This document shows positions 5,486 to 60,990 of a DNA stretch of 64,000 bases, piece by piece. How positions within the stretch are numbered: the first letter of the stretch is position 1; every line of letters starts with the position of its first letter. The notes below the pieces were generated by a model. That model did no database searches. It had not been told where the DNA came from and saw only the letters and a list, made by a program, of their open reading frames with translations. Made by a program: the position numbers and the translations under genes. The DNA lies in assembly GCA_027452005.1 (NCBI GenBank), contig DAIDHF010000002.1:661-64660 (forward strand). The letters run 5' to 3'. This DNA comes from Acidimicrobiales bacterium (GTDB lineage: Bacteria > Actinomycetota > Acidimicrobiia > Acidimicrobiales > JAKAVM01).

Positions 5486-6577
5486 GTGATGCTCTTTTCT
5501 GAACGTTGGCAAAATTATTCTCATAGTGACTTGGATGATCTGCCTACTTATCCGAGGGTTGTAGAAATTCCAGAAGGCCTCCTATTCCTGGTCGAAAGCA
5601 GGAAGAAGCGGGTTGGACCGTGGTCAGAACGGGCAATAATCCTGAGCCACGATCCAAAATATCCTCAAAAGATTGGCACTCAGGTTTTGCCGAGCCGCGA
5701 TGGGATTACTCGTGTTGTGAGTACTTTACGATCACCAAGCCGTGTCCCCGTTCGAATTCGTGAGACCAGCTCCGCCTGCTATGCAGAGATATGGTCCTCA
5801 CAAGAGCTTGACTGGGTGTGCGCTGTCGAACTCAAACCTGGGTGTCGAGCAGCTTCGCTTCTTCCGTATGCTAACGACCGTGCCCTAGCGATAGGTGGAT
5901 TGGGGCATGCGCCAGCTGAGAACCCCTTCCCTAGCTCTGAGGTGGTTGATATCAACTTTTCCGACTGCACGACTACCGTGCTAACGCCATTCCCGCAACC
6001 AATCATCAGAGCACATGCTTTCTTGCTTCCTTCCCACCAAGTTTTCTTACTAGGTGGAATGTCGCATTATACCCGAGAAGAAATTCCTGAACAGCAACAA
6101 ACCTTTATTGCTTCCCCTCCTTTTGACCACTGGGATACCGCCGATGTCCCCGGCATCGGGCGTAATGGCCCAATAATTGCACAAGTGCATGACGGTGACA
6201 TACTCATCGCCGGCGGGGGAGATGGCGTACAAGAACAAGCCACCAATAGCTGCCGGTTGTATAGTGCCACCAAGAATACCTGGCAAGATCTAGCGCCGTC
6301 TTTAAACCCACGAACTTTCGCTGGCCATGTGGTCATTGGGAATTCGGTCGTAGTTGTCGGGGGTACTTCTCGGGGCTACGAATGGGTGCAGGATGCCATG
6401 TCGGTCGCAGAGGTCTATGACGGGGATAGTGATACGTGGTCGACTCTGCCGTCTCTGAACCGTGAGCGAATGTGCCCAACCGTCGCGTGGCTGGACAATG
6501 TAGGGGTCATCGTTGCGGGAGGAGTTGGAAGACAAGGAAGCGGCGTTACTAGTATCGAGATTTTGGCCGAGAGCTAG
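5486..6577 (+). CDS. Kelch-repeat (beta-propeller) protein
   Basis: 363-aa ORF with about 5-6 units of ~47 aa. Each unit carries a GG doublet (LAIGGLGH, VFLLGGMSH, ILIAGGGDG, VVVVGGTSRG, VIVAGGVG) and a Trp segment (NTWQDLAPSLNPRTFAGH, DTWSTLPSLNRERMCP). Confidence 0.7.
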   Translation: MMLFSERWQNYSHSDLDDLPTYPRVVEIPEGLLFLVESRKKRVGPWSERAIILSHDPKYPQKIGTQVLPSRDGITRVVSTLRSPSRVPVRIRETSSACYAEIWSSQELDWVCAVELKPGCRAASLLPYANDRALAIGGLGHAPAENPFPSSEVVDINFSDCTTTVLTPFPQPIIRAHAFLLPSHQVFLLGGMSHYTREEIPEQQQTFIASPPFDHWDTADVPGIGRNGPIIAQVHDGDILIAGGGDGVQEQATNSCRLYSATKNTWQDLAPSLNPRTFAGHVVIGNSVVVVGGTSRGYEWVQDAMSVAEVYDGDSDTWSTLPSLNRERMCPTVAWLDNVGVIVAGGVGRQGSGVTSIEILAES

Positions 6578-22747: not shown

Positions 22748-23158
22748 CGACGACAAGTTGGCCGGGTAGTCGCGGCAAAGAAGTTACCTAGTAGCTTTTT
22801 TGTCGAGGAAGGTCGGGGCTCCATAGAGCAGGGTGCTGGCTAACGGCCAGGCGGGGTGACCCGACGGAAAGTGCAACAGAGAGTAGACCGCCGACGTGTT
22901 GACCCGACTCGGGCTCAACACGGGCAAGGGTGAAACGGTGAGGTAAGAGCTCACCAGCAACCGGGGTAACTCGGTTGGCTTTGTAAACCCCACCCGGAGC
23001 AAGGTCAAATGTGAGACACGGGTTGCTCGCTCGCACCAGGCCGTGACCTGGTGCAGTCTCCTGGTAGACCGCTTAGATGGATGACTACACAGTCCGGGCC
23101 GGGCCATTAGGCCCTCCCGGATGGACAGAACCCCGCCTACAGGCCGACTTGTCGTCAC
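22748..23158 (+). ncRNA. rnpB: RNase P RNA, bacterial class A
   Basis: Conserved regions were read directly.
- CR-I: GAGGAAGGUCGGGGCUCCAUAGAGCAGGGUGCUGGCUAACGGCCAGGCGGGGUGACCCGACGGAAAGUGCAACAGAGAGUAGACCGCC
- AGGGUGAAACGGUGAGGUAAGAGCUCACCAG
- CR-IV/V: GACAGAACCCCGCCUACAGGCC
The P1/P2 helix pairs CGACAAGUUGGCC (22751-22763) with GGCCGACUUGUCG (23142-23154). The ends are approximate to a few nt. Confidence 0.93.
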
Positions 23159-36651: not shown

Positions 36652-37206
36652 GTGGTAAATGAATCACGAGATATCGAGGTTGTTGATCTGGGAACCAGAC
36701 CGGAACTCACTAGGCAAGTTCGTGACCTTATCTCCGAGTTCTTGCTACTTGGGGACTCCTGGGTGGTGCTGCTAGGCCTCACCCAAGACGGTGCCCTTCC
36801 GGACTATTTGGTGGCTGAACTAGACGCACTTCCGGGTCTAACAAGTGGGACAACCGGCATGGTTGCAGTAGCCACCATCAAAAACCAGGCCTGTGGGACT
36901 GGGCAGATTCGCCCCTTTCGGGAGTCTCAACACGATGAGAAGGCCGTCGAGATTCCACCGGGGCTTTGTGAGCTAAAGCGGATGTACGTACCGTCTACTT
37001 ATCAGCGCCGGGGAGTTGGTAAGTTGATAGTACAGTTTCTCACTGAAAAGGCACTGGATTTAGGATTTCGTGAAATGTACTTGGACGTAACTTCAAATAG
37101 GCAGGGATCAATAGAGTTTTATGAGTCGCTCGGTTTTCAACCGTGTAGGGCCCGCCACGACTACGGCCACTCGGTAGTATCCATGTCTAAGGTTCTCGGA
37201 CGTTGA
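36652..37206 (+). CDS. GNAT-family N-acetyltransferase
   Basis: 184-aa ORF with the acetyl-CoA motif A, MYVPSTYQRRGVGKLIVQFL, and C-terminal FYESLGFQP. Confidence 0.75.
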   Translation: MVNESRDIEVVDLGTRPELTRQVRDLISEFLLLGDSWVVLLGLTQDGALPDYLVAELDALPGLTSGTTGMVAVATIKNQACGTGQIRPFRESQHDEKAVEIPPGLCELKRMYVPSTYQRRGVGKLIVQFLTEKALDLGFREMYLDVTSNRQGSIEFYESLGFQPCRARHDYGHSVVSMSKVLGR

Positions 37207-37399
37207 AGATAACGGTCAAGTGAACCTGGGCCTAAAGCGACCCCGCCTTGACGGAACCCCCTTGTCAAGTCTGGGAATGGCCCAGGCGGTTGTCGTGGCA
37301 ACTGTAATCGACGGGGCATTTCAGATCTGGACCCTGGCCCGGAAGATCTCGAAGATCACCGGTCGATATGTACACAAACCCTAGGTAGTCCACGGTACC

Positions 37400-38305
37400 G
37401 TGGTCAGTCGGCTTTCTCGGATTTTAGATTCTGTAGAAATTTATCCAAGTACCCGGGTGGCAATTGGTGTAATTAGCCCGGCTGGACTTGAACTGGCCGG
37501 AGATACCACAGAGACTTTTTCTTGGGCCTCGGTAACTAAGCTTGTAACCTCACTTGCCATACTATTAGCCCTTGAAGAGGCGACACTATCCCTAGACGAC
37601 CTGACCGGTCCATATAAGTCAAGCATTCGAAATCTCTTGAGCCATTCCTCAGGAATTGGTCCAAGACCATTTGCCGGGCTGGATCGTAATATTGGATTAC
37701 CTCAGCGCAGCCTCTCAGGACGATATGTTGAGGGTAAAGATCTAGAGGAGCTCCAGTGCCCGCCTGAGACTAAGCGAATCTACTCAAATCTGGGATTTGA
37801 GATTCTCGCTGGCCACCTTGAGGCTCGCTCACAGATGAGCTTTGCTGAGTATCTAATCGAGGGCGTCCTAGAGCCTTTGTCCATGATGAACTTGGCCCGT
37901 CCGGATAACTTTGGGTCCCCAGCTCACGGTGCCCGGGGGACGATTGGCGACCTCATGGTCATGGCAAGAGAACTCCTCAACCCAGAGCTACTATCGCCTG
38001 AAACCACTCTGGTCGCACGGACGGCATGCCACCCGGGGCTATCTGGGATTCTTCCGGGGTTTGGCCACATGGACGACAACAGTTGGGGGCTGGGATTTGA
38101 GATAAAGTCGACTAAGGAGCCTCACTGGACCTCCCCGGCCAACACTCTAGAGACCTTTGGTCATTTTGGTCAGTCTGGTGCCTTTGTCTGGATTGACCCG
38201 GTCAACCGGGTCGCATTCGGTTACCTCTCAGAGAGACCCTTCGATTCATGGGCCAGAGACAACTGGCACAAGATTTCCAGTGACGTATTGACCCACTTTG
38301 GTTAG
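37400..38305 (+). CDS. Serine hydrolase, beta-lactamase-family (short form)
   Basis: 301-aa ORF with the SxxK motif WASVTKLVTS and later YSNLGFEIL. Confidence 0.7.
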   Translation: MVSRLSRILDSVEIYPSTRVAIGVISPAGLELAGDTTETFSWASVTKLVTSLAILLALEEATLSLDDLTGPYKSSIRNLLSHSSGIGPRPFAGLDRNIGLPQRSLSGRYVEGKDLEELQCPPETKRIYSNLGFEILAGHLEARSQMSFAEYLIEGVLEPLSMMNLARPDNFGSPAHGARGTIGDLMVMARELLNPELLSPETTLVARTACHPGLSGILPGFGHMDDNSWGLGFEIKSTKEPHWTSPANTLETFGHFGQSGAFVWIDPVNRVAFGYLSERPFDSWARDNWHKISSDVLTHFG

Positions 38306-38325
38306 TTTGCAAGATTGACTACACC

Positions 38326-39834
38326 GTGAACATAAACTTGCGTCCAGGGGGGAAGAAGTCGATCACGAAGACACGCTGGCACACAGCTGCGTCTGGGTCA
38401 CTGTGGTCACTTGGCCTCTTGTTGGTACTAAGCGCGACCATGGTCCCATTTCGGGAACACCTCAGTGTGGCGACAACTGCCCTTGTACTCGTGGTACCTG
38501 TTGTAGTTGGCGTGTCAATCGGGGGGTTTGTAGCCGGGATACTTGCAACCCTTGCCGGCTTTTTGACTTATGACTTTATATTTATTCCTCCCTATTACAC
38601 GTTGTCGGTTGGCCAGACCCAGAACTGGGCGGCGCTCGTGGTATACGTAATTGTAATGACAGTTGTAGCTCAGGTGGTTTCCAGGTTAGACAGCGCGAGG
38701 GCCGAGGCAAAGCGCCGCGCGGGCGAGCTCAGGAGGCTCTTTGATATCTCTGAGCTTCTTGTAAAAGAGTCACCCGAGCCAGAGCTGGTTGAGACAATTG
38801 TGAAGACAGTCAAACAGGCCTTTAACTTGAGCGGGGCAGCGCTTTTGCTACCGACCGGACACGCCCTAGAACTAGTGGCCAGCGCTGGCGATCGGCTTCA
38901 AGAAAATGAACTTGCCCGTCTCACATCCGAGGCCCAACAGCCGGTAACCCTTGGATCTTACGGAGAACCCGACCAAGACTTCCAGGTAATTGCTCTTTCA
39001 CCATCTGGAGATCCCATTGGACTACTTGTCCTAAGGGGACACTTGGCCACCCGTGGAGACCAAGATCTACTTCGGGCATTTACCAACCACCTTGCATTGG
39101 CCCTAGAAAGAAATCAGATGCGCAACAAGGCCATGCGAGCCCAGCTCTTGGAGGAAACCGACAAGTTACGACGGTCTCTAGTTGGGGCTGTCTCTCACGA
39201 CCTACGAAGTCCCCTAGCCACTATCAAGGTTTCCACGTCTACACTACTGGACCCAGACTCTCCGGTAGGATCAAGTGAAGCTCAAGAACTTATAAGGCTA
39301 ATTGACATGCAGGCTGATCGACTAGACCGATTGGTCACCAACTTACTCGACATGACCAGGATTCAATCCGGATCTCTTGAGCTTAGACGTCGACCTATTA
39401 TGGTTGACGATCTAATTTGCGAAGCCCTCGCGGTTGTATGCCCACCCACTGAGAAACATTCAGTTTTATTCCAGCCAACTCCAGGGATCCCGTTGGTCGA
39501 TGTGGATAGCGTACTTATCTGCCAGGTACTGATTAATCTTATAGACAACGCTATACGCTATAGTGCTCCCGGAGACCCCATTGTAGTTTCTGCGCAAGTA
39601 TTCTCAGATGAGCTCCTGGTAGTGTCTGTGCAAGATTGCGGCCCGGGAATTCCCGCTGACGAACGAGAGGGTATCTTTCAGATGTTCAACCGTCGTGAAT
39701 CTGGTGGACGAGGTGGATTGGGCCTCGCGATTGCCAAATCCTTCGTCGTCGCCCATGGGCAAAGAATCTGGGTAGATTCAAGTCCTAACGGGGGATCGTG
39801 TTTCACGTTCACGCTCCCAATTTCCAAGACATAA
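38326..39834 (+). CDS. kdpD: KdpD-type sensor histidine kinase, C-terminal half only (DUF4118 membrane module, GAF-like, HisKA, HATPase)
   Basis: 502-aa ORF with the KdpD-style 4-TM block (LSVATTALVLVVPVVVGVSIGGFVAGILATLAGFLTYDFIFIPPYYTL...). It has the H-box LVGAVSHDLRSPLATI, the N-box NLIDNAIRYS and the G-box GGLGLAIAKSFV. It lacks the KdpD N-terminal and Usp domains, which are encoded separately at 46664-47857. Confidence 0.8.
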   Translation: MNINLRPGGKKSITKTRWHTAASGSLWSLGLLLVLSATMVPFREHLSVATTALVLVVPVVVGVSIGGFVAGILATLAGFLTYDFIFIPPYYTLSVGQTQNWAALVVYVIVMTVVAQVVSRLDSARAEAKRRAGELRRLFDISELLVKESPEPELVETIVKTVKQAFNLSGAALLLPTGHALELVASAGDRLQENELARLTSEAQQPVTLGSYGEPDQDFQVIALSPSGDPIGLLVLRGHLATRGDQDLLRAFTNHLALALERNQMRNKAMRAQLLEETDKLRRSLVGAVSHDLRSPLATIKVSTSTLLDPDSPVGSSEAQELIRLIDMQADRLDRLVTNLLDMTRIQSGSLELRRRPIMVDDLICEALAVVCPPTEKHSVLFQPTPGIPLVDVDSVLICQVLINLIDNAIRYSAPGDPIVVSAQVFSDELLVVSVQDCGPGIPADEREGIFQMFNRRESGGRGGLGLAIAKSFVVAHGQRIWVDSSPNGGSCFTFTLPISKT

Positions 39835-39907
39835 TATGTATCCAGATTGATCGTTTGGCCTGGGCTCAAAAAAGTGCGTGATCTCAAGCTTGCCAGAACG
39901 CTGGCAA

Positions 39908-40960
39908 CTAATTTAGGTGATCTTTGAAAGCATTCGCTGCGGGCAAGACTTTAGATCCGTTGTCGAGAACAATCGCCCAACCGGTGTTTCCACTCCCCGT
40001 TACACCCGGGAACGGGTAACGAGGAGAAAAGATCCACGAGGTAGACCCAAGCAGTCCTAGGTGACGCTCAGCGTCGACCTCCCCGAGGACGCCCTGATAG
40101 ATAGTTGCCTGGGTCTCAAGAGTACCTTGCACCTCTCCAGCCCCCGATGCGGGAGCGACACCATTACTGGCTCCCCACTCTTCGAGGAATATCGGTTTCC
40201 CCTGGGCATAGTGGCGAACCTGAGAAAGAAATGAGCGGGTCCAAAGTTGAGGGCTCTTACCACTTTTCAAGGCCTGGGTGTACCCATAGAGGTGAGGAGA
40301 AACCACGTTTACAATTCCAATTATGTAGCTGAGGTCCGAGGGCCGTTGCCAGATCAGCTGGCCCGTGGGTGGTTGAAACTTCCACCCCCCGATCGTTACC
40401 GGAATTCCCGGGGCAACTTGATGGGCGTAGCTAGCTGCGGCCTTTAGCTCACTGAGGATTGTTGGACTGTTGACAGTGGGCTCGTTGGCAATATCTATCA
40501 TCCACAGGGCGGGCAACTTTGCCAACCCGTAGGTTTGGAGCAGGAGCTGCTCTTGAGTTTTCCAGGGCTCTCGGGCTGATCCCGAGGTAAGTTGAATAAT
40601 CTTGATCCCGCTTGCGGCGGCCTGATTATAAACATTGCGATACTCGGCCTTGGTGTACTCCTGCCCGGTAACCTGCTCGCGCGAGTCAACAATCCGGATA
40701 ACCTTGATTCCTAACTGGCGGGCAAAGTCGAAAAAGTCACCTCCACTCGAGGTTCTAAGAGTGTACGGGGTGCCCGGTACCAGGCTGGACATGTCTACGT
40801 TGACGCCGTTCAAAGACCCGGTAGTTTCTTTTGGGGTGCCAGGTGACTTTAGCGGGGGTGTCGAACACGATGCCGCGCTGGCAAGGAGGGCGAAAATAAC
40901 TAACCCGCTAGCTCCTCGCCTAAGTTTGCCCGCTTTAGTTCGTATTGAAGACCTGTACAT
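39908..40960 (-). CDS. Secreted lipoprotein, clan GH-A (GH5-like) glycoside hydrolase
   Basis: 350-aa ORF with a lipobox LLASAASCS. The candidate acid/base motif is DIANEPT and the candidate nucleophile motif is IFLEEWG, with spacing typical of (beta/alpha)8 GH5 enzymes. Confidence 0.6.
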   Translation of the reverse strand: MYRSSIRTKAGKLRRGASGLVIFALLASAASCSTPPLKSPGTPKETTGSLNGVNVDMSSLVPGTPYTLRTSSGGDFFDFARQLGIKVIRIVDSREQVTGQEYTKAEYRNVYNQAAASGIKIIQLTSGSAREPWKTQEQLLLQTYGLAKLPALWMIDIANEPTVNSPTILSELKAAASYAHQVAPGIPVTIGGWKFQPPTGQLIWQRPSDLSYIIGIVNVVSPHLYGYTQALKSGKSPQLWTRSFLSQVRHYAQGKPIFLEEWGASNGVAPASGAGEVQGTLETQATIYQGVLGEVDAERHLGLLGSTSWIFSPRYPFPGVTGSGNTGWAIVLDNGSKVLPAANAFKDHLN

Positions 40961-41098
40961 TTATTTTGGAACTTTCTCATTTCACGAAGTTGTTCAATAT
41001 CAACCTGAATGCTGGCCTGCATCTTAACACGACCTACCAGCCGATGTTTCCAAAGCTACCAGCTTTCCATCTTGAATCGTCATGGGGTAATTTGTGAT

Positions 41099-41776
41099 GT
41101 GACTAAAGTTCTAGTCGTTGACGACGACCGGGCTCTTCAAAAAGCGCTAAAGGTTGGTCTGACAGCGAGAGGTCATGTGGTGACTGCCGCTCTCACCGGC
41201 GAAGAGGGGCTTTCAAAGTTTGCCCTCGAACAGCCCGAGTTACTTATTCTCGATCTTGGCCTTCCAGACCTTGATGGCCTTGAAATATGTCACAGGATTA
41301 GGACATTTAGTGAAACGCCGATCATTGTATTGTCGGCTATTGGACTTGAAGATCGCAAAGTCTTAGCACTTGACAGCGGTGCAAACGACTATGTGACAAA
41401 GCCATTTGGTATGGCCGAATTGGAAGCCAGAATTCGGACCGCACTTAGGGGGCGACAGCCCGAATTTGGCCCAGAATGCAGCCATCTAAAACAGGGCGAT
41501 CTTGAGATAGACCTGGTCCATCATGAGGCTCGATACCAAGGTAGGTCCCTGGAGCTGACCTCCAAAGAATTTGACCTTCTTTTATTTTTTGCCAAGAATG
41601 CCGGAAAGGTGTGTACCCACCAAATGATCTTGGGTCACGTATGGGGATCTTCTTACTCTAGTGAGGCAGAGTACTTGCGGGTATATGTCTACCGACTCAG
41701 ACGTAAATTGGGTGACTCTGGGAACGAGTTACTGCGTACGGCCCCAGGAATAGGTTACTCGATCCACCTAGACTAG
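41099..41776 (+). CDS. kdpE: OmpR-family response regulator KdpE
   Basis: The GTG start at 41099 gives VTKVLVVDDDRALQKAL..., whereas the ORF-track start at 41009 adds an implausible leader. It has the receiver Asp (ILDLGLPDLDG) and a winged-helix C-terminus (LTSKEFDLLLFFAKNAGKVCTHQMIL...YVYRLRRKL). It lies directly upstream of kdpFABC. Confidence 0.85.
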   Translation: MTKVLVVDDDRALQKALKVGLTARGHVVTAALTGEEGLSKFALEQPELLILDLGLPDLDGLEICHRIRTFSETPIIVLSAIGLEDRKVLALDSGANDYVTKPFGMAELEARIRTALRGRQPEFGPECSHLKQGDLEIDLVHHEARYQGRSLELTSKEFDLLLFFAKNAGKVCTHQMILGHVWGSSYSSEAEYLRVYVYRLRRKLGDSGNELLRTAPGIGYSIHLD

Positions 41777-41807
41777 CCAGCCATAACATTTTCGTTATCG
41801 CACCGCT

Positions 41808-41828
41808 AAATTTATAGATTTTTTATGT
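41808..41828 (+). promoter_or_regulatory. Candidate KdpE operator (two AT-rich half-sites)
   Basis: AAATTTATAGATTTTTTATGT contains TTTATA, 4-5 nt, then TTTAT(G). This resembles my recollection of the E. coli kdpFABC operator (TTTATA-N5-TTTACA). It lies about 45 bp upstream of the first kdp cistron. A second AATTTATA occurs at about 41852. Confidence 0.3.
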
Positions 41829-41873
41829 CCTAGACCCGGTGCTTCATGCCTAATTTATATTGGACTATCTACC

Positions 41874-41966
41874 ATGAGGATCATGGCAGATATTGTTTCG
41901 TTTCTTTCAGTAGCTGGATTCCTCGGAGTCATGATCGGCTTAACTAAAGCCCTGGGTAAACTGTGA
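41874..41966 (+). CDS. Candidate 30-aa hydrophobic peptide preceding kdpF
   Basis: Too short for the ORF track. My translation gives MRIMADIVSFLSVAGFLGVMIGLTKALGKL with one TM helix. Its TGA (41964-41966) overlaps the kdpF GTG (41963) as GTGA. No clear Shine-Dalgarno is present. Confidence 0.35.
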   Translation: MRIMADIVSFLSVAGFLGVMIGLTKALGKL

Positions 41967-42052
41967 CCCTCGTTCAGATCCTGCTATTGATTTTGTCTGT
42001 GGCCATCTTTATCTACTTGGGTATTGCTCTACTAAACCCGGAGAAATTCTGA
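41963..42052 (+). CDS. kdpF: K+-transporting ATPase subunit F
   Basis: Too short for the ORF track. My translation gives VTLVQILLLILSVAIFIYLGIALLNPEKF (29 aa). It matches the KdpF pattern (..YL..ALL.PEKF). Its stop overlaps the kdpA ATG (TGATG). Confidence 0.75.
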   Translation: MTLVQILLLILSVAIFIYLGIALLNPEKF

Positions 42053-43743
42053 TGGGCTATATCGCCGAACTTGTAGTCGTGGTCCCTATTCTCGCCCTTG
42101 TCTGGCGATTCTTGGGCGCTTATATGACCGGCGTGTACGAGGGACGTTACCGTTTCCTGCGTTGGATAGAGTCCCCGATATATCGAGTCCTGTCTGTAGA
42201 TCCTAACAGTGAGCAGTCCTGGCAACGATATGCCGGTTCTTTGATTGTATTTTCCGCGGTCGCCCTAGTGGTTACCTATACCATCATGCGCTTGCAGGGA
42301 CACTTGCCGCTCAACCCCCAGCACCTAGGTGGAGTTACTCCGGCCCTGGCATGGAACACGGCGGTATCTTTTGTGACCAACACCAACTGGCAAAACTACG
42401 CGGGCGAGTCCACCATGTCATATCTTTCCCAGATGGCCGCATTAACAGTCCAGCAATTTGTGAGTGCATCTGTAGGAGTTGCAGTAGCCGTGGCCTTGAT
42501 TCGAGGGCTGTCCCGAAAGGACTCTAAGACCATCGGAAATTTTTGGGTTGATTTGGTACGCGGAGTCTTTTATATCTTGATTCCGATTTCCTTTGTCTCA
42601 GGGATAGTATTTGTGGCTCAAGGGGCCGTACAAACCCTTTCTGGACCGGCCAAAGTTCATAATTCACTAAACGGAGTGCATCAAATAATCGCCCGAGGTC
42701 CTGTTGGATTTATGGAACCTATCAAGGAGCTTGGCACAAATGGGGGCGGGTTTTTCAATGCAAATGGGGCGCATCCATTCGAGAATCCCACCGCACTTAC
42801 TTTGTTGCTATCGGTGATATTAATTCTGGCGATTCCCGTGGCCCTGACCTATACGTTTGGTCAGATGGTGAAAAGCGGTCGTCAAGGGGTTGCCCTCTTG
42901 GCCACTATGACGATCATCTTTGGGGTCTGGCTTGGATTTACCACTTATGCGGAGACTCAACCAAACCCGGCCGTTGCAAGTGCGCACGTGGTGAGTCAGC
43001 GGACCGGAAACATGGTTGGCAAGGAGGTCAGGTTTGGTCCACGCCTAACGTCTCTATACAACGTTGCCTCAACACAGACCTCAACTGGATCGGTAGCCGG
43101 AGCAAACGATTCTTTCAATCCAATGGGTGGCTTTGGACTACTAACCGGGATGATGCTTGGTGAAGTATCTCCAGGAGGAGTGGGAAGTGGGTTATATACA
43201 ATACTTCTTTTTGCGATAATAACCGTGTTTATCGGAGGCCTGATGGTTGGGAGGACTCCTGAGTACTTGGGTAAGAAAATTCAGTCCAGGGAGGTAAAAT
43301 TGGCTGCTCTAGGAGTCCTCGTGATGCCTATAACCGTCTTGATTCTCACGGCAGTTGCCGTGTCAGTACATGGGGGTCAGAGTGCAATTGGGAACAAGGG
43401 TCCTCATGGATTTACAGAAATCCTCTACGCATTTACTTCCCAGGCCAACAACAACGGGTCAGCATTTGCCGGACTCAATGGCAATAGTGCTTTTTATAAC
43501 ATAACAGGTGGACTTGCTATGCTTGTCGGGCGCTTTGCGGTGATGCTTCCATGCCTGTGTCTGTCAGGTGCCCTAGCAGATAAAGGCGTAGTCCCGGCCG
43601 GCCCGGGAACATTTCGCTCAGACACTCCCCTGTTTTCAGGACTACTCATTGGGGTTATCTTGATCGTTGGAGGCCTTACATTTTTCCCGGCCGTTTCCCT
43701 TGGGCCAATTGTAGAACAATTGAGCCACGGAAAGCTTTTTTGA
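42052..43743 (+). CDS. kdpA: K+-transporting ATPase subunit A
   Basis: 563-aa polytopic ORF with KdpA selectivity-filter-type segments ([43 protein letters not shown]). Confidence 0.92.
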
Positions 43744-45812
43744 TGAACACCAACGCGCAACAAGTCGACAACACCTCTAGCACACAACGCTCGGGAGGTC
43801 TTGCAAGACCTCGGGGACTCTTTGACCCGGAGATTCTTCTTCAGGCAACCTTTGACGCATTCAAGAAATTTGATCCCAGGCTACAACTCAAAAACCCGGT
43901 GATGTTTGTGGTGTTAGTCGGGACCATGGTGACTTTGCTTGAGGCCATAGCGCACCCGAGTATTTTTAGTTGGAGCATAACGTTCTGGCTGTTTCTAACG
44001 GTCTTGTTTGCTAACTTTGCTGAGGCACTAGCAGAAGGACGTGGCAAGGCTCAGGCCGATACCCTTAGACGGATGCGGGCCGATACTCAAGCCAGACAGC
44101 TACTTGATGATGGTTCCCTAAGGCAGGTCCCAGCGTCCCAGCTCACCAAGGGAGACCTCGTCGTCTGCGAGGCTGGTGATCAAATCCCCTCGGATGGAGA
44201 GATCATCGAGGGTGTAGCCTCGGTTGACGAGTCTGCCATAACCGGCGAATCTGCCCCGGTTATTCGTGAGTCTGGTGGAGACCGGTCTGCGGTAACCGGG
44301 GGCACAAAGGTCCTATCAGATCGCATCGTAATAAGGATTACTGCCGAGCGTGGACATACCTTTATGGATCGAATGATCGCCCTGGTTGAAGGGGCTAACC
44401 GCCAGAAAACCCCAAACGAAATTGCCCTTACAATCTTGCTATCCGCTTTGACGATCGTCTTTTTACCAGTTGTCGTGACCTTAGAGCCATTTGGCCATTT
44501 TGCGGGAACGTCCGTGTCAGTCGTGATCTTGGTAGCCCTCCTGGTGTGTCTTATTCCAACAACAATCGGGGCGTTGCTTTCAGCAATTGGGATCGCCGGG
44601 ATGGACCGATTGGTACAGCGAAACGTGTTAGCAATGAGCGGTCGGGCGGTTGAGGCTGCCGGGGATGTTCAGACTTTGTTGCTAGATAAGACAGGAACAA
44701 TCACACTCGGAAACCGGATGGCTGCTGCCTTTATTCCCACTGGGGGACACCAAGAGCAAGAACTTGCCGAGGCCGCGCAACTTTCGTCCCTGGCCGATGA
44801 GACTCCCGAAGGACGCTCAATAGTAGTCCTGGCCAAAGAGAGATTTGCCCTACGTGAGCGTGACCTAGGCCAGTCCCGCCAGTTCATTGCGTTTTCAGCC
44901 ACCACGAGAATGTCAGGTCTCGACTTAGGCGACAGGCGAATTCGTAAGGGAGCCGCCGAGTCCGTCTGCAACTGGGTGCGCGACCAGGGAGGGACAGTCC
45001 CGGGTGAACTTGACGAGATTGTCGAGAGAGTTGCCAAGGCCGGTTCTACTCCGTTGGTCGTGGCCGATGGCAAAGATGTACTCGGTGTAATTGAGCTAAA
45101 GGACGTCGTGAAAGACGGGATTCGCGAGAGGTTCGATCAGCTAAGAGCAATTGGAATAAGAACCGTAATGATAACTGGAGATAATCCCTTGACTGCTGCA
45201 GCTATCGCCACCGAGGCCGGGGTCGACGACTATCTGGCCCAGGCAACTCCTGAGGCCAAGCTGGAGTTGATTAGAGCTCAACAGAAAGGGGGTCGTCTCG
45301 TGGCAATGACCGGGGATGGAACTAACGATGCCCCGGCCTTGGCCCAGGCCGACGTGGGTGTAGCTATGAACAGTGGAACGACCGCTGCAAAGGAAGCTGG
45401 CAACATGGTCGACTTGGACTCCAATCCGACCAAGTTGATCGACATTGTGGAGGTCGGCAAACAACTTCTAATTACACGAGGATCACTTACGACCTTTTCA
45501 ATCGCCAATGACGTGGCCAAGTATTTTGCGATAATACCGGCCCTGTTTGTTGCCAGTTACCCTCAGTTGAAAGCCCTAAACATTATGCGCCTGCACAGTC
45601 CCCAGAGTGCCGTCCTGTCCGCGGTTATCTTTAACGCCCTAGTAATTATTGCCCTGATCCCCTTGGCACTTCGCGGGGTTAGGTGGCGACCCTCTAATGC
45701 CACATCGATTCTTCGACGTAACGTCATGGTATATGGGGTTGGCGGGGTGATCGTCCCGTTTATCTTTATCAAGCTAATTGATCTTCTATTGACCTCCCTG
45801 GGGTGGTATTGA
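43743..45812 (+). CDS. kdpB: K+-transporting P-type ATPase subunit B
   Basis: It has the P-type motifs [23 protein letters not shown] and [24 protein letters not shown] at 43743 overlaps the kdpA stop (TGATG). The ORF track starts one codon earlier, at TTG 43740. Confidence 0.93.
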
Positions 45813-46363
45813 TGATCTTGAACCTCCGCCGAGCCTTGGTGGCGTCCGTTGTCTTTTTGGTACTGTGTGGCCTTCTATACCCATTAGCAGGGACTGGAAT
45901 ATCTCAACTATTTTTCGCCAGGCAGGCCAACGGCTCACTAACTCCGTACGGATCTTCCCTAATTGGTCAGGTCTGGACCGGACCCGGCTGGTTTCATGGA
46001 CGGCCCGACGGATCAATCATAACTACTGGACCGGGAGGTGTACTGGTCTCTGGAACCAATCAACCCGGGCCACGTTCAAAAGCCCTCGCCAGCCAAGTAG
46101 CCAAAACCGCCCAGACTCTCAAGAGGGAAGGAGTAATCCCGACCAATGACCTCGTTACAACTTCGGGAAGTCTCCTTGACCCAGATATAAGTCCTCGAGA
46201 CGCATTCGCTCAGATGAGGGCCCTATCCGCGGCTAGGTCAGTCCCGGAAAGCCAGCTTAGGCGCCTAATTGACGGTCAAATTCACGGCAAGCTACTCGGA
46301 TTCATTGGACGGCAATACGTTGACGTGCTCTCGCTCAACATTGCACTATCCCGATTGAAGTGA
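45812..46363 (+). CDS. kdpC: K+-transporting ATPase subunit C
   Basis: [43 protein letters not shown] and C-terminal DLVTTSGSLLDPDISP fit KdpC. ATG at 45812 overlaps the kdpB stop. The ORF track uses GTG 45803. Confidence 0.88.
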   Translation: MILNLRRALVASVVFLVLCGLLYPLAGTGISQLFFARQANGSLTPYGSSLIGQVWTGPGWFHGRPDGSIITTGPGGVLVSGTNQPGPRSKALASQVAKTAQTLKREGVIPTNDLVTTSGSLLDPDISPRDAFAQMRALSAARSVPESQLRRLIDGQIHGKLLGFIGRQYVDVLSLNIALSRLK

Positions 46364-46674
46364 CCACGATTCCTCCACAGGCCAATTGGGGAGGGAACCC
46401 ACATGTCAATGACCTAGCCCAAGCCAGACCACGAAGCCGGATCAAGGCGACTGGAACTATCACCAGACAGACCTTGACATTAGTGGCTACCAGCCCGTCG
46501 ATGCTATTCTCATTTTCCGACGGCTCGGTTGAAATCGGACTACTGTTTATTGGGCAGCGGTATGTGCCTGGATTGGCGGTTGGGGTTAGATGTCAAGTTG
46601 AAGGAACCGCACAGTACTGGGCCGGAAACCTGGTTATCTGGAACCCGATCTACGAGTTTATCTATGATGAGTGA
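46360..46674 (+). CDS. Small OB-fold-like protein embedded in the kdp operon
   Basis: 104-aa ORF whose GTG start overlaps the kdpC stop (GTGA). IKATGTITRQTL...FSFSDGSVEIGLLFIGQRYVPGLAVGVRCQVEGTAQYWAGNLVIWNPIYEFI has the strand pattern of small actinobacterial OB-fold proteins (..D.tG.i.l.F.G.r.ipG...G....v.G......g.l.i.NP.Y.l). Confidence 0.6.
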   Translation: MTTIPPQANWGGNPHVNDLAQARPRSRIKATGTITRQTLTLVATSPSMLFSFSDGSVEIGLLFIGQRYVPGLAVGVRCQVEGTAQYWAGNLVIWNPIYEFIYDE

Positions 46675-47857
46675 TCCGAAAAACTTGAACCGTCCTCAAG
46701 ACCTGGTAGAAGTTGACGAGTTGGCTGGAGTAGTAGAGGCTGCCGGGCACTTTCGGATCTATCTTGGGGCATGTGCTGGGGTCGGGAAAACCTATGCCAT
46801 GCTCAATGAAGGACACCGACGGGCCAGTCGAGGAACCAAGGTAGTTATTGGATTTGTCGAGCACCATAACCGAGAGTTGACCAAGCAACTTATCGAGGGC
46901 TTGCCCCTTGTAGATCGACAACAGATAAACCACAGAGGGGTTATCTTCGAGGAGATGGACCTTGAGGCTATATTGGCCCTTCGACCACAGGTTGTTCTTG
47001 TAGATGAACTAGCCCACACTAATGTCCCCGGATCTGGGCACAATGAAAAGAGGTGGCAGGATGTCCTAGAGATTCTCGACGCCGGGATTGACGTGATCAC
47101 GACAGTCAACATTCAACACCTTGAGAGTATTGCCGATCCAGTAGAACAGATGACCGGAACGGTAGTGCGGGAACGAGTACCAGACTGGGTAGTCCGCAAA
47201 GCCGACCAGATTGAACTCGTTGACTCATCTCCCGAGGCTTTACGCCGTAGGATGCTACACGGGAACATCTATCCCAAAGACAAGGTACCACAGGCACTAT
47301 CTCACTTCTTCCGGGTTGAGAATCTAAATGCCCTTAGAGAACTCGCTTTACGATTTTTGGCAGATGCGACTGAAGAAGAACTCTTAGAAGGCCTGAAAAA
47401 AGAACACTCTAACGTGTTATGGGAGACAACAGAGCGAATCATGGTGGCAGTATCTCCGTCCCCGGGGACGAGATTTCTGGTCAGACGAGCCGCTCGAATT
47501 GCAAGCCGGGTAAAAGGCGAGCTTGAAGTAGTTCACGTGTCAACTGAAGAGGAAACCAGCCGGTCCAATACCAGCGTGCTTCGAGAGCTTCGTGAACTGT
47601 GCATCGACGTGGGGGGTAGGTGGCACGAGATAGAGGGACACGACGTAGCCCGAGACCTAATTAGTTTTGCCCAGGACAATCAAATAACACAAATTGTCTT
47701 GGCCTCAAGTAGTCGTAGGCTTTGGCAACGTGTACTTGGCAGAGGTTCAACGGTAAGAAAGGTTCTCAGGTATGCCGGTGCTGCAGGAGTTGATGTACAC
47801 GTAATATCGCTTAATAGATCGGCGGAGAACCTTGGCGAAACTCCACAGATTGATTGA
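46664..47857 (+). CDS. kdpD: KdpD N-terminal sensor domain plus Usp domain, no membrane or kinase part
   Basis: The ATG start at 46664 overlaps the OB-fold ORF by 11 nt, whereas the ORF-track start at 46529 is an out-of-context extension. FRIYLGACAGVGKTYAMLNEG, VDELAHTN, KRWQDVLEILDAGIDVITTVNIQHLES and VRERVPDWVV match the KdpD N-terminal (Walker-like) domain. A Usp-like RIMVAVSPSPGTRFLVRRAARIA...VVHV follows. The ORF ends without TM helices. Confidence 0.85.
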   Translation: MMSDPKNLNRPQDLVEVDELAGVVEAAGHFRIYLGACAGVGKTYAMLNEGHRRASRGTKVVIGFVEHHNRELTKQLIEGLPLVDRQQINHRGVIFEEMDLEAILALRPQVVLVDELAHTNVPGSGHNEKRWQDVLEILDAGIDVITTVNIQHLESIADPVEQMTGTVVRERVPDWVVRKADQIELVDSSPEALRRRMLHGNIYPKDKVPQALSHFFRVENLNALRELALRFLADATEEELLEGLKKEHSNVLWETTERIMVAVSPSPGTRFLVRRAARIASRVKGELEVVHVSTEEETSRSNTSVLRELRELCIDVGGRWHEIEGHDVARDLISFAQDNQITQIVLASSSRRLWQRVLGRGSTVRKVLRYAGAAGVDVHVISLNRSAENLGETPQID

Positions 47858-47892
47858 GGAAAAATCCGCTAACTAGTCAGAGCGAAAAGACG

Positions 47893-49080
47893 TCAAAGAC
47901 GAGGCATCAATTGAGACCGGGCATCCGGGTTTACACACAGGTCATAAGCGGTCCAGGCCAGGGCGATGGCCCCGTCAATAACCGCCCGGTCTCCTGCGGG
48001 GGAAATGGCCACGTCAGCAAACTCCGCCTGATGGTTGACGATCGGTAGACAGTCCAGGGAGATCATTGGATGAATTGACGGAATAACCTTAGATATGTTT
48101 GCCATGTCTGTTGACATCGGGGTGGATACAACATCAGGGAAAGACCGTCCAAGTCCCTCAGCGTTGCGTCGATAGAGGTCTTGAAAAACCGGGTCTTCTC
48201 GAAATTCACTGTAATTAGGTCCGAGATAGTCCATGGAATATGAAGCGCCGCTAGCCAAGGCTCCGGCCTGAAAGCACCTGACAACTCGGGGCTCAATTTG
48301 GCCTAGTTCCTCTAATGTTGGTGTCCTCACGAAGTACTCGGCCTGGCAAAAATCGGGAATGATATTTGCCGCCGTGCCGCCCCGGCGAACAATTCCGTGA
48401 ATCCTGGTCGTGGTCGGGAGTTGCTGGCGCAACAACCCAATAGCTACCTGAGAGATCGTGTGGGCGTCGAGGGCGTTGATCCCCTCGTGGGGAAATCCCG
48501 AGGCGTGAGCAGCCTTGCCCTCAAAGGAGACCTTAAAATGTGACACGGCCAAACAGGCCAGTTGAACCTGCTCGGTTGGTCCCGGGTGCACCATCATGGC
48601 AAGGTCGATATCGTCAAACACCCCGGCGTCCATAAGTAAGATCTTTCCCCCTCCACCCTCTTCGGCTGGGGTCCCGATGACCTTTACCGTGGCCCCGATG
48701 TCGTCGGCAAGACCCTTTAGGGCAACCCCGGCACCTAGGGCGCTTGCCGCAATTATGTTGTGCCCACAGGCATGTCCAACCCCTGGCAGGGCATCGTACT
48801 CAGCACAGATCCCAACAGTTACAGGGCCAGTTCCATAGGTAGCCACAAAGGCAGTTGGCAGTCCCCCAACTCCCAACTCAAGCTCCATTCCAAGATCGGA
48901 GAGTTCTTGACATAGCCACCTAGATGCCTTGACCTCCTCGAAGCATAACTCGGGGTTGGCATGAATTCTATGGCTTACATCGATCAAGGTTCCTTCTATG
49001 GACCTCACCCGTGTTGCCAATGCGGTCTTGGCTGAACTTTCAGTATCCTCGGCTCTGTCGGTCATTTTCTGGGCTCCCAC
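47893..49080 (-). CDS. M20-family amidohydrolase/peptidase (AbgB/hippurate-hydrolase-like)
   Basis: 395-aa ORF with HRIHANPELCFEE and AEYDALPGVGHACGHNIIAA, plus the dimerisation-domain pattern. Confidence 0.8.
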   Translation of the reverse strand: MGAQKMTDRAEDTESSAKTALATRVRSIEGTLIDVSHRIHANPELCFEEVKASRWLCQELSDLGMELELGVGGLPTAFVATYGTGPVTVGICAEYDALPGVGHACGHNIIAASALGAGVALKGLADDIGATVKVIGTPAEEGGGGKILLMDAGVFDDIDLAMMVHPGPTEQVQLACLAVSHFKVSFEGKAAHASGFPHEGINALDAHTISQVAIGLLRQQLPTTTRIHGIVRRGGTAANIIPDFCQAEYFVRTPTLEELGQIEPRVVRCFQAGALASGASYSMDYLGPNYSEFREDPVFQDLYRRNAEGLGRSFPDVVSTPMSTDMANISKVIPSIHPMISLDCLPIVNHQAEFADVAISPAGDRAVIDGAIALAWTAYDLCVNPDARSQLMPRL

Positions 49081-50929: not shown

Positions 50930-51002
50930 GGGGACGTAGCTCAGCTGGTAGAGCACCTGGTTTGCAACCAGGGGGTCGGCGGTTCGAGTCCGCTCGTCTC
51001 CA
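50930..51002 (+). tRNA. tRNA-Ala (anticodon UGC)
   Basis: A cloverleaf was folded by hand:
- acceptor GGGGACG/CGTCTCC with the G3:U70 alanine identity pair
- D arm GCTC/GAGC
- anticodon arm CCTGG-TTTGCAA-CCAGG
- T arm GGCGG-TTCGAGT-CCGCT
CCA is not encoded. Confidence 0.95.
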
Positions 51003-57990: not shown

Positions 57991-60990
57991 TTGCTTTCAA
58001 AGATTCTAAAGAATAAAAAGGCCCTCATAGCGGGCGTGGTGGTTGTGGCCGTGATTGGTGCCATCGTTTACTCGATTTCCGGTTCCAAGTCGAACTCGAT
58101 TAACGGACAGACCGTCATCTATTCACAGGTGGCTCGACGCACTCTACAGGGAACCACGGTTCTCTCAGGCACCCTGGGGCACAAGACAATTACGACCGTT
58201 TCGGCCATGAATTCCGCTTTTGTGAGTTCTACCGATGCCACGGCCAACTCTGTCCAAAACCAGGGGGACACCCTATTTTCTCTGAATGGCCGCAAGGCAA
58301 TTGCCGAAAACGGGACTCTTCCGTTCTTTCGGTCTTTAGGGCCTGGTGACGTGGGAAACGATGTACTTGAGCTCAAACAGATCTTGGCTTCATCGGGAGA
58401 CAACCCCGGTGCCATGAACAACATCTTCACTCAGCAAACCCAAAGTGCCCTAGCACAGTGGCAAGCCCAAAATGGATATCCCAGCGGAGTGCCAGCCTCA
58501 AAAGAGGCTGTCACAGTGGCCCTGCAACAAGGGACCGGCTATAACCTAGGGGCCCAGTCTAGTGCCGGGCTTGTAATCGGGCCCCCTGCCCCAACGGCCC
58601 AACTTTCCTCGTACTCTGTTTCTCACTTTATCCCGGCCCGTTCTCGCCATCTAATTGGGAAGAGATACCGCTTTAGTGGCAAGAAACTGGGTCATCACCA
58701 CAATCGATCCAAAGCTACCCGCCGACACAAAAAGCGAGACCGACACCTAAACAAGTCAGGACTCAAAAGGAACGGTTCTCGCCAGGCAGTTTTGGCATCG
58801 TTTTCCACCGAGAGTCATCTTTCGGGTCCAGTCCCGCACACCACGACTCTGGGCCTCACCATTACAGGGACCACGTCAACGACTCCAGGTACCTCGGTCA
58901 CCTTTACTGTAAACGCGAACGAGGCCGCTCCCCAAAACACGTACGTCTACCTCACGGTTGGGGGCAGCGCTCTCGCCGGGGTGGACTACGTCCCATTCAA
59001 CACGACCCTGGAACTCGACTCAGGTGCCATCTCTACCAGCTTTACCGTCACCACGCTACCAAATCAGACTATCGAGCCGAATAAGTTCTTGGACATCGTC
59101 TTGTCTCAGTCACCTAGTGGGGACTACTACGTTTCGGAGCCTTCGGCCGCTGCACTAACTATCGATGAGCCGACCGGGACTCTTGGGCTACCCACACTTA
59201 CCCTTACGTCATCGACCACATATCTAGATAAAGGGGCTCCGTTCGAGGTCGTGATCGGCCTAGATCAAGCCTACGGACAGTCGGTAACCGTTCAACTCGC
59301 CTATAGTGGGACTGCGGTTGCGGGAACCGACTACGTGGAACCCTCAGGAAACATTGTCGTTCCGGCCGGGTACACGTCATTGACAGTGCCAATCGCAACC
59401 GTGTCGAATAATCTTGTTGAACCAGATAAGACGTTGACCGTAACTCTCGCGACCAACTCGGCGTACGACATTGGAAATCCTGACAGTGCAACCGTGACAA
59501 TTCACGACCCCAACGTTCCTCAGCTCAACATTATTGGCGGGTCACAGATTACCGCTGGGACCTCAACCACTCTAACCATTCAAGCAAACCAGACGGCCAG
59601 TCAGGATACCCAGGTGCTCCTGTCATTCTCTGGGACCGCTCAGGCCGGTATTGATTACGATGTCCCTGACCCCGTAGTGACTATTCCAGCAGGCCAGCAG
59701 AGCGTGTCGTTCTCACTTACCACCCTCGTCAACCCGATTATAGAGCCCCAGCGCTATATAGTTGTCTCAATCGCACAGTCGCCAGCGGGAGCTTATACAG
59801 TCCAGACCCCGGGATCTACGGTGGTAACTTTGGGTACTCCTCAGTCAGCTCCCCCTTTTGTCACGATTAGTTCCGGGATCAACTACCTCCACAAAGGAAC
59901 CCCTTTCCAGGTCTCAGTCGGGCTTACTCAGGCCACTGATACCACCTTGACCATCAACTTGTCCTTTAGTGGCACGGCCAAGGCGGGAGTAGACTACACG
60001 CCACCGGCCGGACTAATTCAGATTCCAGCAGGCCAAACAGTTGCCCAGGTTACAATCCCAACCCTGGTGGACAACCTGGTTGAAGCCGACACGACACTCA
60101 CAGTGTCCATTGCTCCGAGTACGTCCTACCAGATTGGAAACCCGAACTCGGTTACTACAACGATCACCTCAAACGTGGTCCCGACAATCACGATAAGTTC
60201 CAGTACGTCGTCGTTGTCTGAGGGAGCAGACGCGACCTTTACAATTACAGCTAACCAGGCCCCGGTCAAAGATACCTCGATCAATTTTTCCGTGGCTGGC
60301 ACAGTTCAGGCGGGAGTTGACTACGTCCCTTTGGCTGGCACGGTTATCCTTCCAGCGGGCCAGACCCAAGTCACCGTGTCATTTCAATCCATTGAAAAGG
60401 ACATCGTTTTTGAGCCTACCGACATGATAGTAGGATCGTGGCCGATAAGAATTGGGCAGGTCTACGTGAAACAAGGCCAGACTATCTCGGCGGGCAGCCC
60501 AATTATGGACCTCACCGAGAGCCAGAACACAATAACCCTTCAAGCCTCACCGTCTGACTTTACCAAGTTGGCCCTGGGACAGAGCTGTACGTTTACAATT
60601 GCCGGGAGCCAGACTGAATATAACGGGACCATATCAGAGCTTGATTCAAACCCAACTATCCAGTCTGGATCTGGGTCCTCAAGCTCACAGCAGATATTTG
60701 AAGGTCGGATTGCGGTTACGAATCTTCCAAAGAGTGACCGGAATGCCGATGGGGCCTCGGTGTCTATTACCGTGGTAACCCAGGAGGCAGACAACGTGCT
60801 GGCAGTCCCGATCGCCGCTATCAAACAGAACGGGACCGGGGTTGACGAGGTTAGGGTTATCGACATGTCGGCCAAGCAAAAGGTCAAGACGGTCCCGGTA
60901 ACAACGGGTCTCACGGAAGGTTCCTATGTTCAAATAACCGGGGGACTAAAACTTGGGGAAACCGTTATAGTATCGGTAAGTCAAGGATAA
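57991..60990 (+). CDS. Giant membrane-fusion (HlyD-type) adaptor: TM, PG-binding-like segment, basic linker, 5 Calx-beta-like modules, HlyD beta-barrel
   Basis: 999-aa ORF.
- TM helix: ALIAGVVVVAVIGAIVYSI
- PG_binding-like segment: VLELKQILASSGDNPGAMNNIFTQQTQSALAQWQAQNGYPSG
- five modules of about 105 aa with G(T/S)A.AG.DY..P.G....PAG ... EP/EA
- C-terminal region: VYVKQGQTISAGSPIMDL...LAVPIAAIKQNG...YVQITGGLKLGETVIV. Confidence 0.8.
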   Translation: MLSKILKNKKALIAGVVVVAVIGAIVYSISGSKSNSINGQTVIYSQVARRTLQGTTVLSGTLGHKTITTVSAMNSAFVSSTDATANSVQNQGDTLFSLNGRKAIAENGTLPFFRSLGPGDVGNDVLELKQILASSGDNPGAMNNIFTQQTQSALAQWQAQNGYPSGVPASKEAVTVALQQGTGYNLGAQSSAGLVIGPPAPTAQLSSYSVSHFIPARSRHLIGKRYRFSGKKLGHHHNRSKATRRHKKRDRHLNKSGLKRNGSRQAVLASFSTESHLSGPVPHTTTLGLTITGTTSTTPGTSVTFTVNANEAAPQNTYVYLTVGGSALAGVDYVPFNTTLELDSGAISTSFTVTTLPNQTIEPNKFLDIVLSQSPSGDYYVSEPSAAALTIDEPTGTLGLPTLTLTSSTTYLDKGAPFEVVIGLDQAYGQSVTVQLAYSGTAVAGTDYVEPSGNIVVPAGYTSLTVPIATVSNNLVEPDKTLTVTLATNSAYDIGNPDSATVTIHDPNVPQLNIIGGSQITAGTSTTLTIQANQTASQDTQVLLSFSGTAQAGIDYDVPDPVVTIPAGQQSVSFSLTTLVNPIIEPQRYIVVSIAQSPAGAYTVQTPGSTVVTLGTPQSAPPFVTISSGINYLHKGTPFQVSVGLTQATDTTLTINLSFSGTAKAGVDYTPPAGLIQIPAGQTVAQVTIPTLVDNLVEADTTLTVSIAPSTSYQIGNPNSVTTTITSNVVPTITISSSTSSLSEGADATFTITANQAPVKDTSINFSVAGTVQAGVDYVPLAGTVILPAGQTQVTVSFQSIEKDIVFEPTDMIVGSWPIRIGQVYVKQGQTISAGSPIMDLTESQNTITLQASPSDFTKLALGQSCTFTIAGSQTEYNGTISELDSNPTIQSGSGSSSSQQIFEGRIAVTNLPKSDRNADGASVSITVVTQEADNVLAVPIAAIKQNGTGVDEVRVIDMSAKQKVKTVPVTTGLTEGSYVQITGGLKLGETVIVSVSQG
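58849..60420 (+). repeat. Array of five Calx-beta-like coding repeats (A-B-A-B-A subtypes)
   Basis: Core motifs by module:
- R1: GGSALAGVDYVPF
- R2: SGTAVAGTDYVEP
- R3: SGTAQAGIDYDVP
- R4: SGTAKAGVDYTPP
- R5: AGTVQAGVDYVPL
The repeats are divergent at the DNA level, so this is an old duplication and not a slippage-prone array. Confidence 0.75.

Follow-up and report, generated by a model that had tools for sequence, protein, structure and literature searches.

KdpD encoded as two complementary genes in an Acidimicrobiales kdp locus, with an apparently undescribed OB-fold cistron ahead of the predicted serine-kinase half

Silberberg et al. 2024 (Nat Commun 15:3223, PMC11018627) reported that the KdpD domain of the sensor KdpD is an atypical serine kinase that phosphorylates Ser162 of KdpB and inhibits the potassium pump, that the isolated domain suffices for KdpB phosphorylation, and that the natural short KdpD/Usp protein of Deinococcus geothermalis phosphorylates KdpB alone, stimulated by cyclic di-AMP (c-di-AMP) and not by K+. 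Their catalog includes a class in which KdpD/Usp and TM/GAF/DHpCA (TM, transmembrane) stand on separate chains, found in 140 of 5495 species, ten of them Actinomycetota, with the Acidobacteriota and Chloroflexota as the commonest phyla; these split species retain the serine-kinase chain downstream of the pump (PMC11018627). For Acidimicrobium ferrooxidans, the rows covered of Supplementary Data 1 of that study give KdpE (C7M0J0), two KdpD-type entries, the KdpD/Usp protein C7LZE9, and a diadenylate cyclase (C7M1R0), C7LZE9 being the sole Acidimicrobiia entry among those rows. Here we analyze the kdp locus in 64,000 nt of DNA from an Acidimicrobiales bacterium (JAKAVM01; assembly GCA_027452005.1, contig DAIDHF010000002.1, positions 661-64,660), in which KdpD is encoded as two genes. 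This whole stretch is referred to as the window, and all coordinates are those of the window.

A first-pass annotation had proposed that KdpD is split into two separately encoded halves placed at opposite ends of the kdp locus, and the existence of two such genes was borne out by comparison with the NCBIfam model and with E. coli KdpD. The two genes are as follows (aa, amino acids).

38326-39834 (+): KdpD histidine-kinase half, 502 aa, with Pfam domains DUF4118, HisKA, and HATPase_c and an NCBIfam KdpD match at E 6e-70
46664-47857 (+): KdpD N half, a soluble protein of 397 aa consisting of a KdpD domain (PF02702, 306 bits) and a Usp domain (43.7 bits)

The halves are complementary and do not overlap. 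Of the 895 positions in the NCBIfam full-length KdpD model, the kinase half covers 391-884 and the N half 20-376, and blastp against E. coli K-12 KdpD places them on residues 392-880 (30% identity, E 5e-51) and 23-353 (42% identity, E 2e-76), respectively. Neither reaches the 1123-bit cut-off of the full-length KdpD equivalog NF007793, the kinase half scoring 236 bits and the N half 295 bits, each on its own half of the model, and tblastn found no third KdpD-like sequence in the 64 kb window. An independent ENA contig (L005) matches window positions 36664-48002 (11,339 nt) at 99.43% identity; the alignment contains 65 mismatches but not a single gap, and the order of the genes agrees, down to the reverse-oriented one that lies between the halves. 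Because this match is gap-free and preserves the gene order, it excludes both a recent frameshift and a misassembly, the latter having been named at the outset as something that could undo the split.

The kinase half had been read as a four-TM, DUF4118-like protein with GAF-like, HisKA, and HATPase regions. Pfam and a hydropathy scan agree with that reading: DUF4118 scores 70 bits, HisKA and HATPase_c are also above their cut-offs, GAF_3 at 25.3 bits falls slightly under its 27-bit cut-off, and hydrophobic stretches across residues 22-123 fit the approximately four TM helices of DUF4118. Its top NCBIfam family is KdpD, at 236 bits versus 141 for the runner-up, in a match spanning the TM, GAF, and kinase regions. 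His291 of the DHp domain aligns with E. coli H673, and Asn408 of the CA domain aligns with the N box.

The N half has no hydrophobic or TM segment in the hydropathy scan, as had been claimed, and its longest open reading frame (ORF) begins at a TTG at 46529. It matches PDB 2r8r (E 1e-61), and a PDB sequence search with the Usp domain alone gave no match. The alignment to NF038185, the NCBI family named "KdpD-like non-kinase potassium sensor," runs end to end (18-371 of 373) at 355.3 bits, under the 550-bit cut-off; judged by sequence, the N half is a divergent relative of this family and not a member by the NCBI threshold. It has a Walker A motif, GACAGVGKT (G35-ACAGV-G41K42T43), the Walker B residues Asp114 and Glu115, and Arg196, and it retains an aromatic residue, Tyr44, at the position of E. 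coli Trp39. It shares 46% identity with the D. geothermalis KdpD over its full length and 49% with C7LZE9 of A. ferrooxidans, and is predicted to be an atypical serine kinase.

A survey of relatives found the split form to be the norm among the homologs retrieved. The best 120 N-half homologs are nearly all 378-453 aa long (three are 527-563 aa), with KdpD and Usp as their only domains, and those carrying source names come from Acidimicrobiales metagenome-assembled genomes; the best 120 kinase-half homologs (456-714 aa) lack the KdpD and Usp domains. Two gene arrangements are common. In one, to which the window belongs, the kinase and regulator genes precede kdpFABC, in some cases an additional ORF (the OB-fold gene described below), and the N half (L001, L002, L006, and L041); in the other, kdpFABC and the OB-fold gene are followed by the N half, the kinase half, and the regulator (L008 and 15 metagenomic loci). 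The position of the halves at opposite ends of the locus, which the first-pass annotation had pointed out, is one of these two. In L026 the kinase and regulator genes lie upstream in divergent orientation. All 15 loci tested in which the halves adjoin each other have them in separate reading frames, with intervening stop codons. Wherever a related locus examined contains the kinase-half ortholog (45-66% identity), that gene is linked to kdpE and kdpFABC.

Some relatives depart from these arrangements. L007 encodes a full-length 892-aa KdpD with KdpE plus a separate 527-aa KdpD/Usp protein, and the adjoining kdp operon has the order kdpF-B-C-A. Two kdp systems stand side by side in L013. An extra receiver-only response regulator, approximately 40% identical to the KdpE receiver domain, occupies a stretch of about 360 nt between the N and kinase halves in L011, L018, L019, and L020.

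Given the catalog of Silberberg et al. (PMC11018627) and the NCBI family NF038185, the split is therefore not a new phenomenon, as the first-pass annotation had implied, but an established class of which the window provides a further, Acidimicrobiia, member. Its value is confirmatory: it extends the regulatory design of 2024, in which a transcriptional histidine-kinase arm and a post-translational serine-kinase arm are carried on separate proteins, to a large, mostly uncultured actinobacterial lineage in which that design is apparently the rule.

The following features lie between the two halves.

39908-40960 (-): GH5-like putative lipoprotein gene, with a weak Cellulase match (E 4e-4) and a lipobox-like AASC in the N-terminal LLASAASC
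41099-41776 (+): kdpE, OmpR-family response regulator of 225 aa with Pfam domains Response_reg and Trans_reg_C
41811-41859 (+): four direct-repeat hexamers, TTTATA-N5-TTTATG-N15-TTCATG-N5-TTTATA, a putative tandem KdpE site in the kdp promoter
41883-41966 (+): 27-aa hydrophobic peptide (MADIVSFLSVAGFLGVMIGLTKALGKL), first cistron of the operon, its stop overlapping the kdpF start
41963-42052 (+): kdpF, 29 aa, TIGR02115 potass_kdpF at 31.6 bits versus a cut-off of 26.85
42052-43743 (+): kdpA, PF03814, 745 bits
43740-45812 (+): kdpB, P-type ATPase subunit, 66% identical to E. coli KdpB, with an alternative start ATG at 43743
45803-46363 (+): kdpC, PF02669, 157 bits
46360-46674 (+): 104-aa OB-fold protein, its start overlapping the kdpC stop (GTGA) and its end overlapping the N-half start by 11 nt

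The GH5-like gene, kdpE, and kdpF/A/B/C between the halves had been described correctly. The kinase half and kdpE are separated by the convergent, minus-strand GH5-like gene, which upholds the earlier claim that they are not co-transcribed, and in relatives the genes for kinase and regulator overlap or leave a gap of 3 nt. The GH5-like gene is present in the near-identical L005 and absent from L001, L002, and L006. It is not part of the Kdp system, and its insertion at this point is a minor twist, confined to this strain and L005. With kdpE and each of the two halves in a transcription unit of its own, the window offers a natural system for studying the two arms of KdpD separately.

The most likely start of kdpE is the GTG at 41099 (MTKVLVVDDD...) and not the longest-ORF start at 41009, because the longer ORF shows homology only from residue 31 and the regulators of relatives are 224-225 aa long. 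KdpE is 41% identical to E. coli KdpE over residues 1-225, and from residue 31 on the product of the longer ORF is 67-70% identical to the L001 and L002 regulators. From 41883 to 47857 neighboring cistrons overlap at their start and stop codons throughout, which fits co-expression from the first peptide to the N half. The N half was correctly identified as the last cistron, and is followed by a convergent M20 peptidase gene; it does not stand directly behind kdpC, since the conserved 104-aa ORF, missed by the first-pass annotation, comes first. In KdpB, Glu170 and Ser171 of the TGES motif correspond to E. coli E161 and S162, the catalytic aspartate is Asp316, and the surrounding ITGESAPV is identical to that of E. 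coli.

The hexamers upstream of the operon are spaced at 11 bp and 21 bp, and the array ends 23 nt upstream of the operon's first ATG. Of 15 related loci, 13 show this geometry with at most two mismatches, the array stopping 22-24 nt short of the ATG of the first peptide, and in GC-richer genomes the sequence drifts to TTCACC/TTTACC with the spacing kept. The hexamers of the window resemble the half-sites of E. coli KdpE, TTTATA-N5-TTTACA. The geometry is that expected for tandem OmpR-family dimers, and by analogy with published work the array is a putative binding site for KdpE. The short distance from hexamers to ATG suggests a very short or absent 5' leader. Riboswitch control of the operon was considered and rejected, Rfam at gathering thresholds and in sensitive mode finding no c-di-AMP or other riboswitch in the leader. 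Consensus scans for promoters and terminators gave results at or below chance level.

The 27-aa peptide preceding kdpF has the form MAD[FL]L.V...MLxLIWxLERV and occurs at this location in 15 of 17 loci examined, the window included. No NCBIfam family matches it, and it may be an extra, unrecognized pump subunit or a leader peptide.

We consider it likely that in this Acidimicrobiia-type kdp locus the two activities of E. coli KdpD reside on two proteins that can work independently. By analogy with the E. coli and Deinococcus work, the kinase half and KdpE would form an ordinary two-component system for K+-dependent transcription, switching on the operon at 41883-47857, probably via the four-hexamer box at 41811-41859. 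The N half would be translated from the mRNA of the pump, made stoichiometrically with it, and would phosphorylate Ser171 in the TGES loop of KdpB, turning the pump off once K+ should no longer be taken up. The Usp domain would be the most likely route of input to the N half, the foremost candidate ligand being c-di-AMP, and the co-translated OB-fold protein may contribute to this control. That the N domain might act on KdpFABC directly had been offered as one of two alternatives by the first-pass annotation, whose interpretation is overall partly supported: direct action accords with published biochemistry (PMC11018627), and the residues it needs are all present in the window.

Several points weigh against this proposal. 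The supporting biochemistry is that of E. coli and Deinococcus proteins. The N-terminal domain of E. coli KdpD contacts its C-terminal counterpart and stabilizes phosphorylated KdpE (KdpE~P) on DNA (Heermann, as cited in PMC2714519), so the two proteins may not be strictly independent. No diadenylate cyclase was found among the 20 of approximately 50 long window ORFs scanned. The Firmicutes c-di-AMP motif (A/G/C)xSxSx2N...(Y/F) is matched at three of five positions in the Usp domain (AVSPSPGT...H). We rejected this motif as a predictor of the ligand: the c-di-AMP-responsive Deinococcus protein matches even fewer positions, and a motif to which a responding protein conforms more poorly has little predictive value. 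As for the promoter, the hexamer pattern has a single match in the window and none in 100 shuffles, a statistic that is indicative only, since the pattern was defined after inspecting these loci; the real evidence is its positional conservation across loci.

The other alternative offered at first, assembly of the sensor in trans, would have the halves re-associate noncovalently, the N half mainly tuning the kinase/phosphatase balance of the membrane half and scaffolding KdpE~P on the promoter instead of acting on the pump, so that the split would be functionally neutral. KdpD/1-395 alone stabilizes the KdpE~P-DNA complex and E. coli halves complement in trans (Heermann 2000/2003, as cited in PMC2714519), and throughout the lineage the two halves are found together on single contigs. 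Short KdpD/Usp proteins are, however, active in species that lack a kinase half (PMC11018627), three loci (L015, L017, and L039) have the OB-fold gene and the kinase half with no adjacent N half, and in the window the placement of the halves in different transcription units uncouples their stoichiometry. We regard this alternative as rather unlikely; re-association and the action of two independent proteins are not mutually exclusive.

The locus might also be misread at a more basic level. If 38326-39834 were an unrelated DUF4118 kinase that lies near kdp, the actual KdpE partner, or else a full-length kdpD, would be encoded elsewhere in the genome, of which the window search spans 64 kb; L007, with its full-length KdpD beside a short KdpD/Usp gene, lends this some color. 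Such a reading is very improbable given that KdpD is the best NCBIfam match of the kinase half by a wide margin, that its orthologs, in those related loci examined in which they occur, adjoin kdpE and kdpFABC, and that the JGI annotation of its homologs is KdpD. An assembly artifact, or a recent disruption of kdpD heading for gene loss, has nothing to speak for it but the odd reverse-oriented gene that separates the kinase half from kdpE. Against this stand the identical order in L005, with substitutions and no indels over 11.3 kb, the intact state of both ORFs with all catalytic residues present, and hundreds of half-length homologs, and we give the idea next to no credence.

The OB-fold cistron is a more useful lead than the split and, with the 27-aa peptide, is worth following up. 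The ORF belongs to no Pfam or NCBIfam family and has no Pfam match even at E values up to 10, and its relatives reach only 17-24 bits against PF01336 (tRNA_anti-codon), for which the gathering score is 27. AlphaFold2, with a 64-sequence alignment, models it confidently as an OB barrel (predicted local distance difference test, pLDDT, 91.7). Foldseek matches this model to the OB domains of RPA32 and Stn1 (probability 1.00, E ~2e-4) and to those of aminoacyl-tRNA synthetases, and a profile search touches the wedge domain of RecG. Some actinobacterial OB-fold proteins may be encoded near trkA/DUF3159, a context on which the reading given here does not rely. Exhaustive profile searching gathered 1125 cluster representatives at E <=1e-3 and 227 at E <=1e-10, most of them 90-150 aa long.

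The gene is likewise placed in L001 (43% identity, E 4e-20) and L008 (P0122), and in L002 it is apparently frameshifted. A metagenome scan with the closest subfamily as query (12-sequence alignment) returned 32 loci, all of them kdp-linked, and wherever the contig extends upstream, kdpC immediately precedes the OB-fold gene. The next gene on its 3' side is the N half in 26 loci and the kinase half in three, the contig ending in the remaining three. The three loci in which the kinase half follows directly, without an N half between, are L015, L017, and L039, and the OB-fold gene is therefore not strictly dependent on an adjacent N half.

Several representatives (P0248, P0252, P0262, and P0388) are fusions of an OB domain, a linker, and KdpD/Usp, and gene fusion of this kind argues for a functional link between the OB-fold protein and the serine-kinase chain. 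The fusion P0252 is genuine, since its cluster holds at least six independent 522-aa copies from different samples. Its AlphaFold2 model has a predicted template-modeling score (pTM) of 0.39 and a disordered 55-residue linker, and no interface between OB domain and kinase can be read from it, for or against. Other candidate fusions place an OB domain on the C-terminus of an APC-type AA_permease_2 protein (P0389, 799 aa, a single representative) and on the N-terminus of a receiver domain (P0257 and P0297, approximately 270 aa).

Within the library searched no paper was found that links an OB-fold to kdpFABC, and the main text of PMC11018627 does not mention an OB-fold protein; of the elements of the locus, this one alone appears undescribed. 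We tentatively propose, as a possibility that falls short of being probable, that it is a component of split-KdpD systems acting as a partner or input module of the serine kinase, to which it is sometimes fused. In that role it might recognize nucleic acid or an anionic ligand, or it might guide the kinase to KdpB. If true, the OB-fold protein would add a third regulatory layer to Kdp control, and regulation of the serine kinase by it would answer what controls short KdpD/Usp kinases that have no K+-sensing domains, a question left open in 2024.

Elsewhere in the window, the sole Rfam matches are a bacterial class A RNase P RNA at 22754-23155 (+, 264 bits) and a tRNA at 50930-51002 (+). Two ORFs unrelated to kdp encode a 999-aa protein with three Calx-beta repeats and a DUF4929-like region (57991-60990, +) and a protein with Kelch repeats (5486-6577).

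Among the closest known systems is the split class of Silberberg et al. (PMC11018627), with which the window shares both chains, their domain boundaries, KdpE, the serine-kinase chain as last gene of the pump operon, the Walker A and B motifs, and the KdpB TGES serine. The OB-fold cistron, the 27-aa peptide before kdpF, and the uncoupling of the kinase half from kdpE by an inserted gene set the window apart from this class, and its source is an uncultured Acidimicrobiia lineage. A. ferrooxidans also has the KdpD/Usp chain and is, in contrast to the source of the window, a cultured acidophile.

The short KdpD of D. geothermalis (Q1J2K3) resembles the N half in its soluble two-domain architecture and in the position of its gene downstream of the pump. 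The Deinococcota are listed with the KdpD/Usp chain only and no TM/GAF/DHpCA chain, whereas the window has both. The beta1-alpha1 loop of the Usp domain reads AAE in the D. geothermalis protein and SPS in the N half of the window, and stimulation by c-di-AMP has been shown for the Deinococcus protein only.

With the 894-aa KdpD of E. coli, the window pair jointly covers residues 23-880 and conserves the catalytic histidine, the Walker motifs, and Arg190, and both loci have a T-rich direct-repeat box upstream of kdpF. The E. coli sensor is, however, a single polypeptide encoded after kdpC and co-transcribed with kdpE, in which the serine kinase is governed by the attached K+-sensing TM/GAF region.

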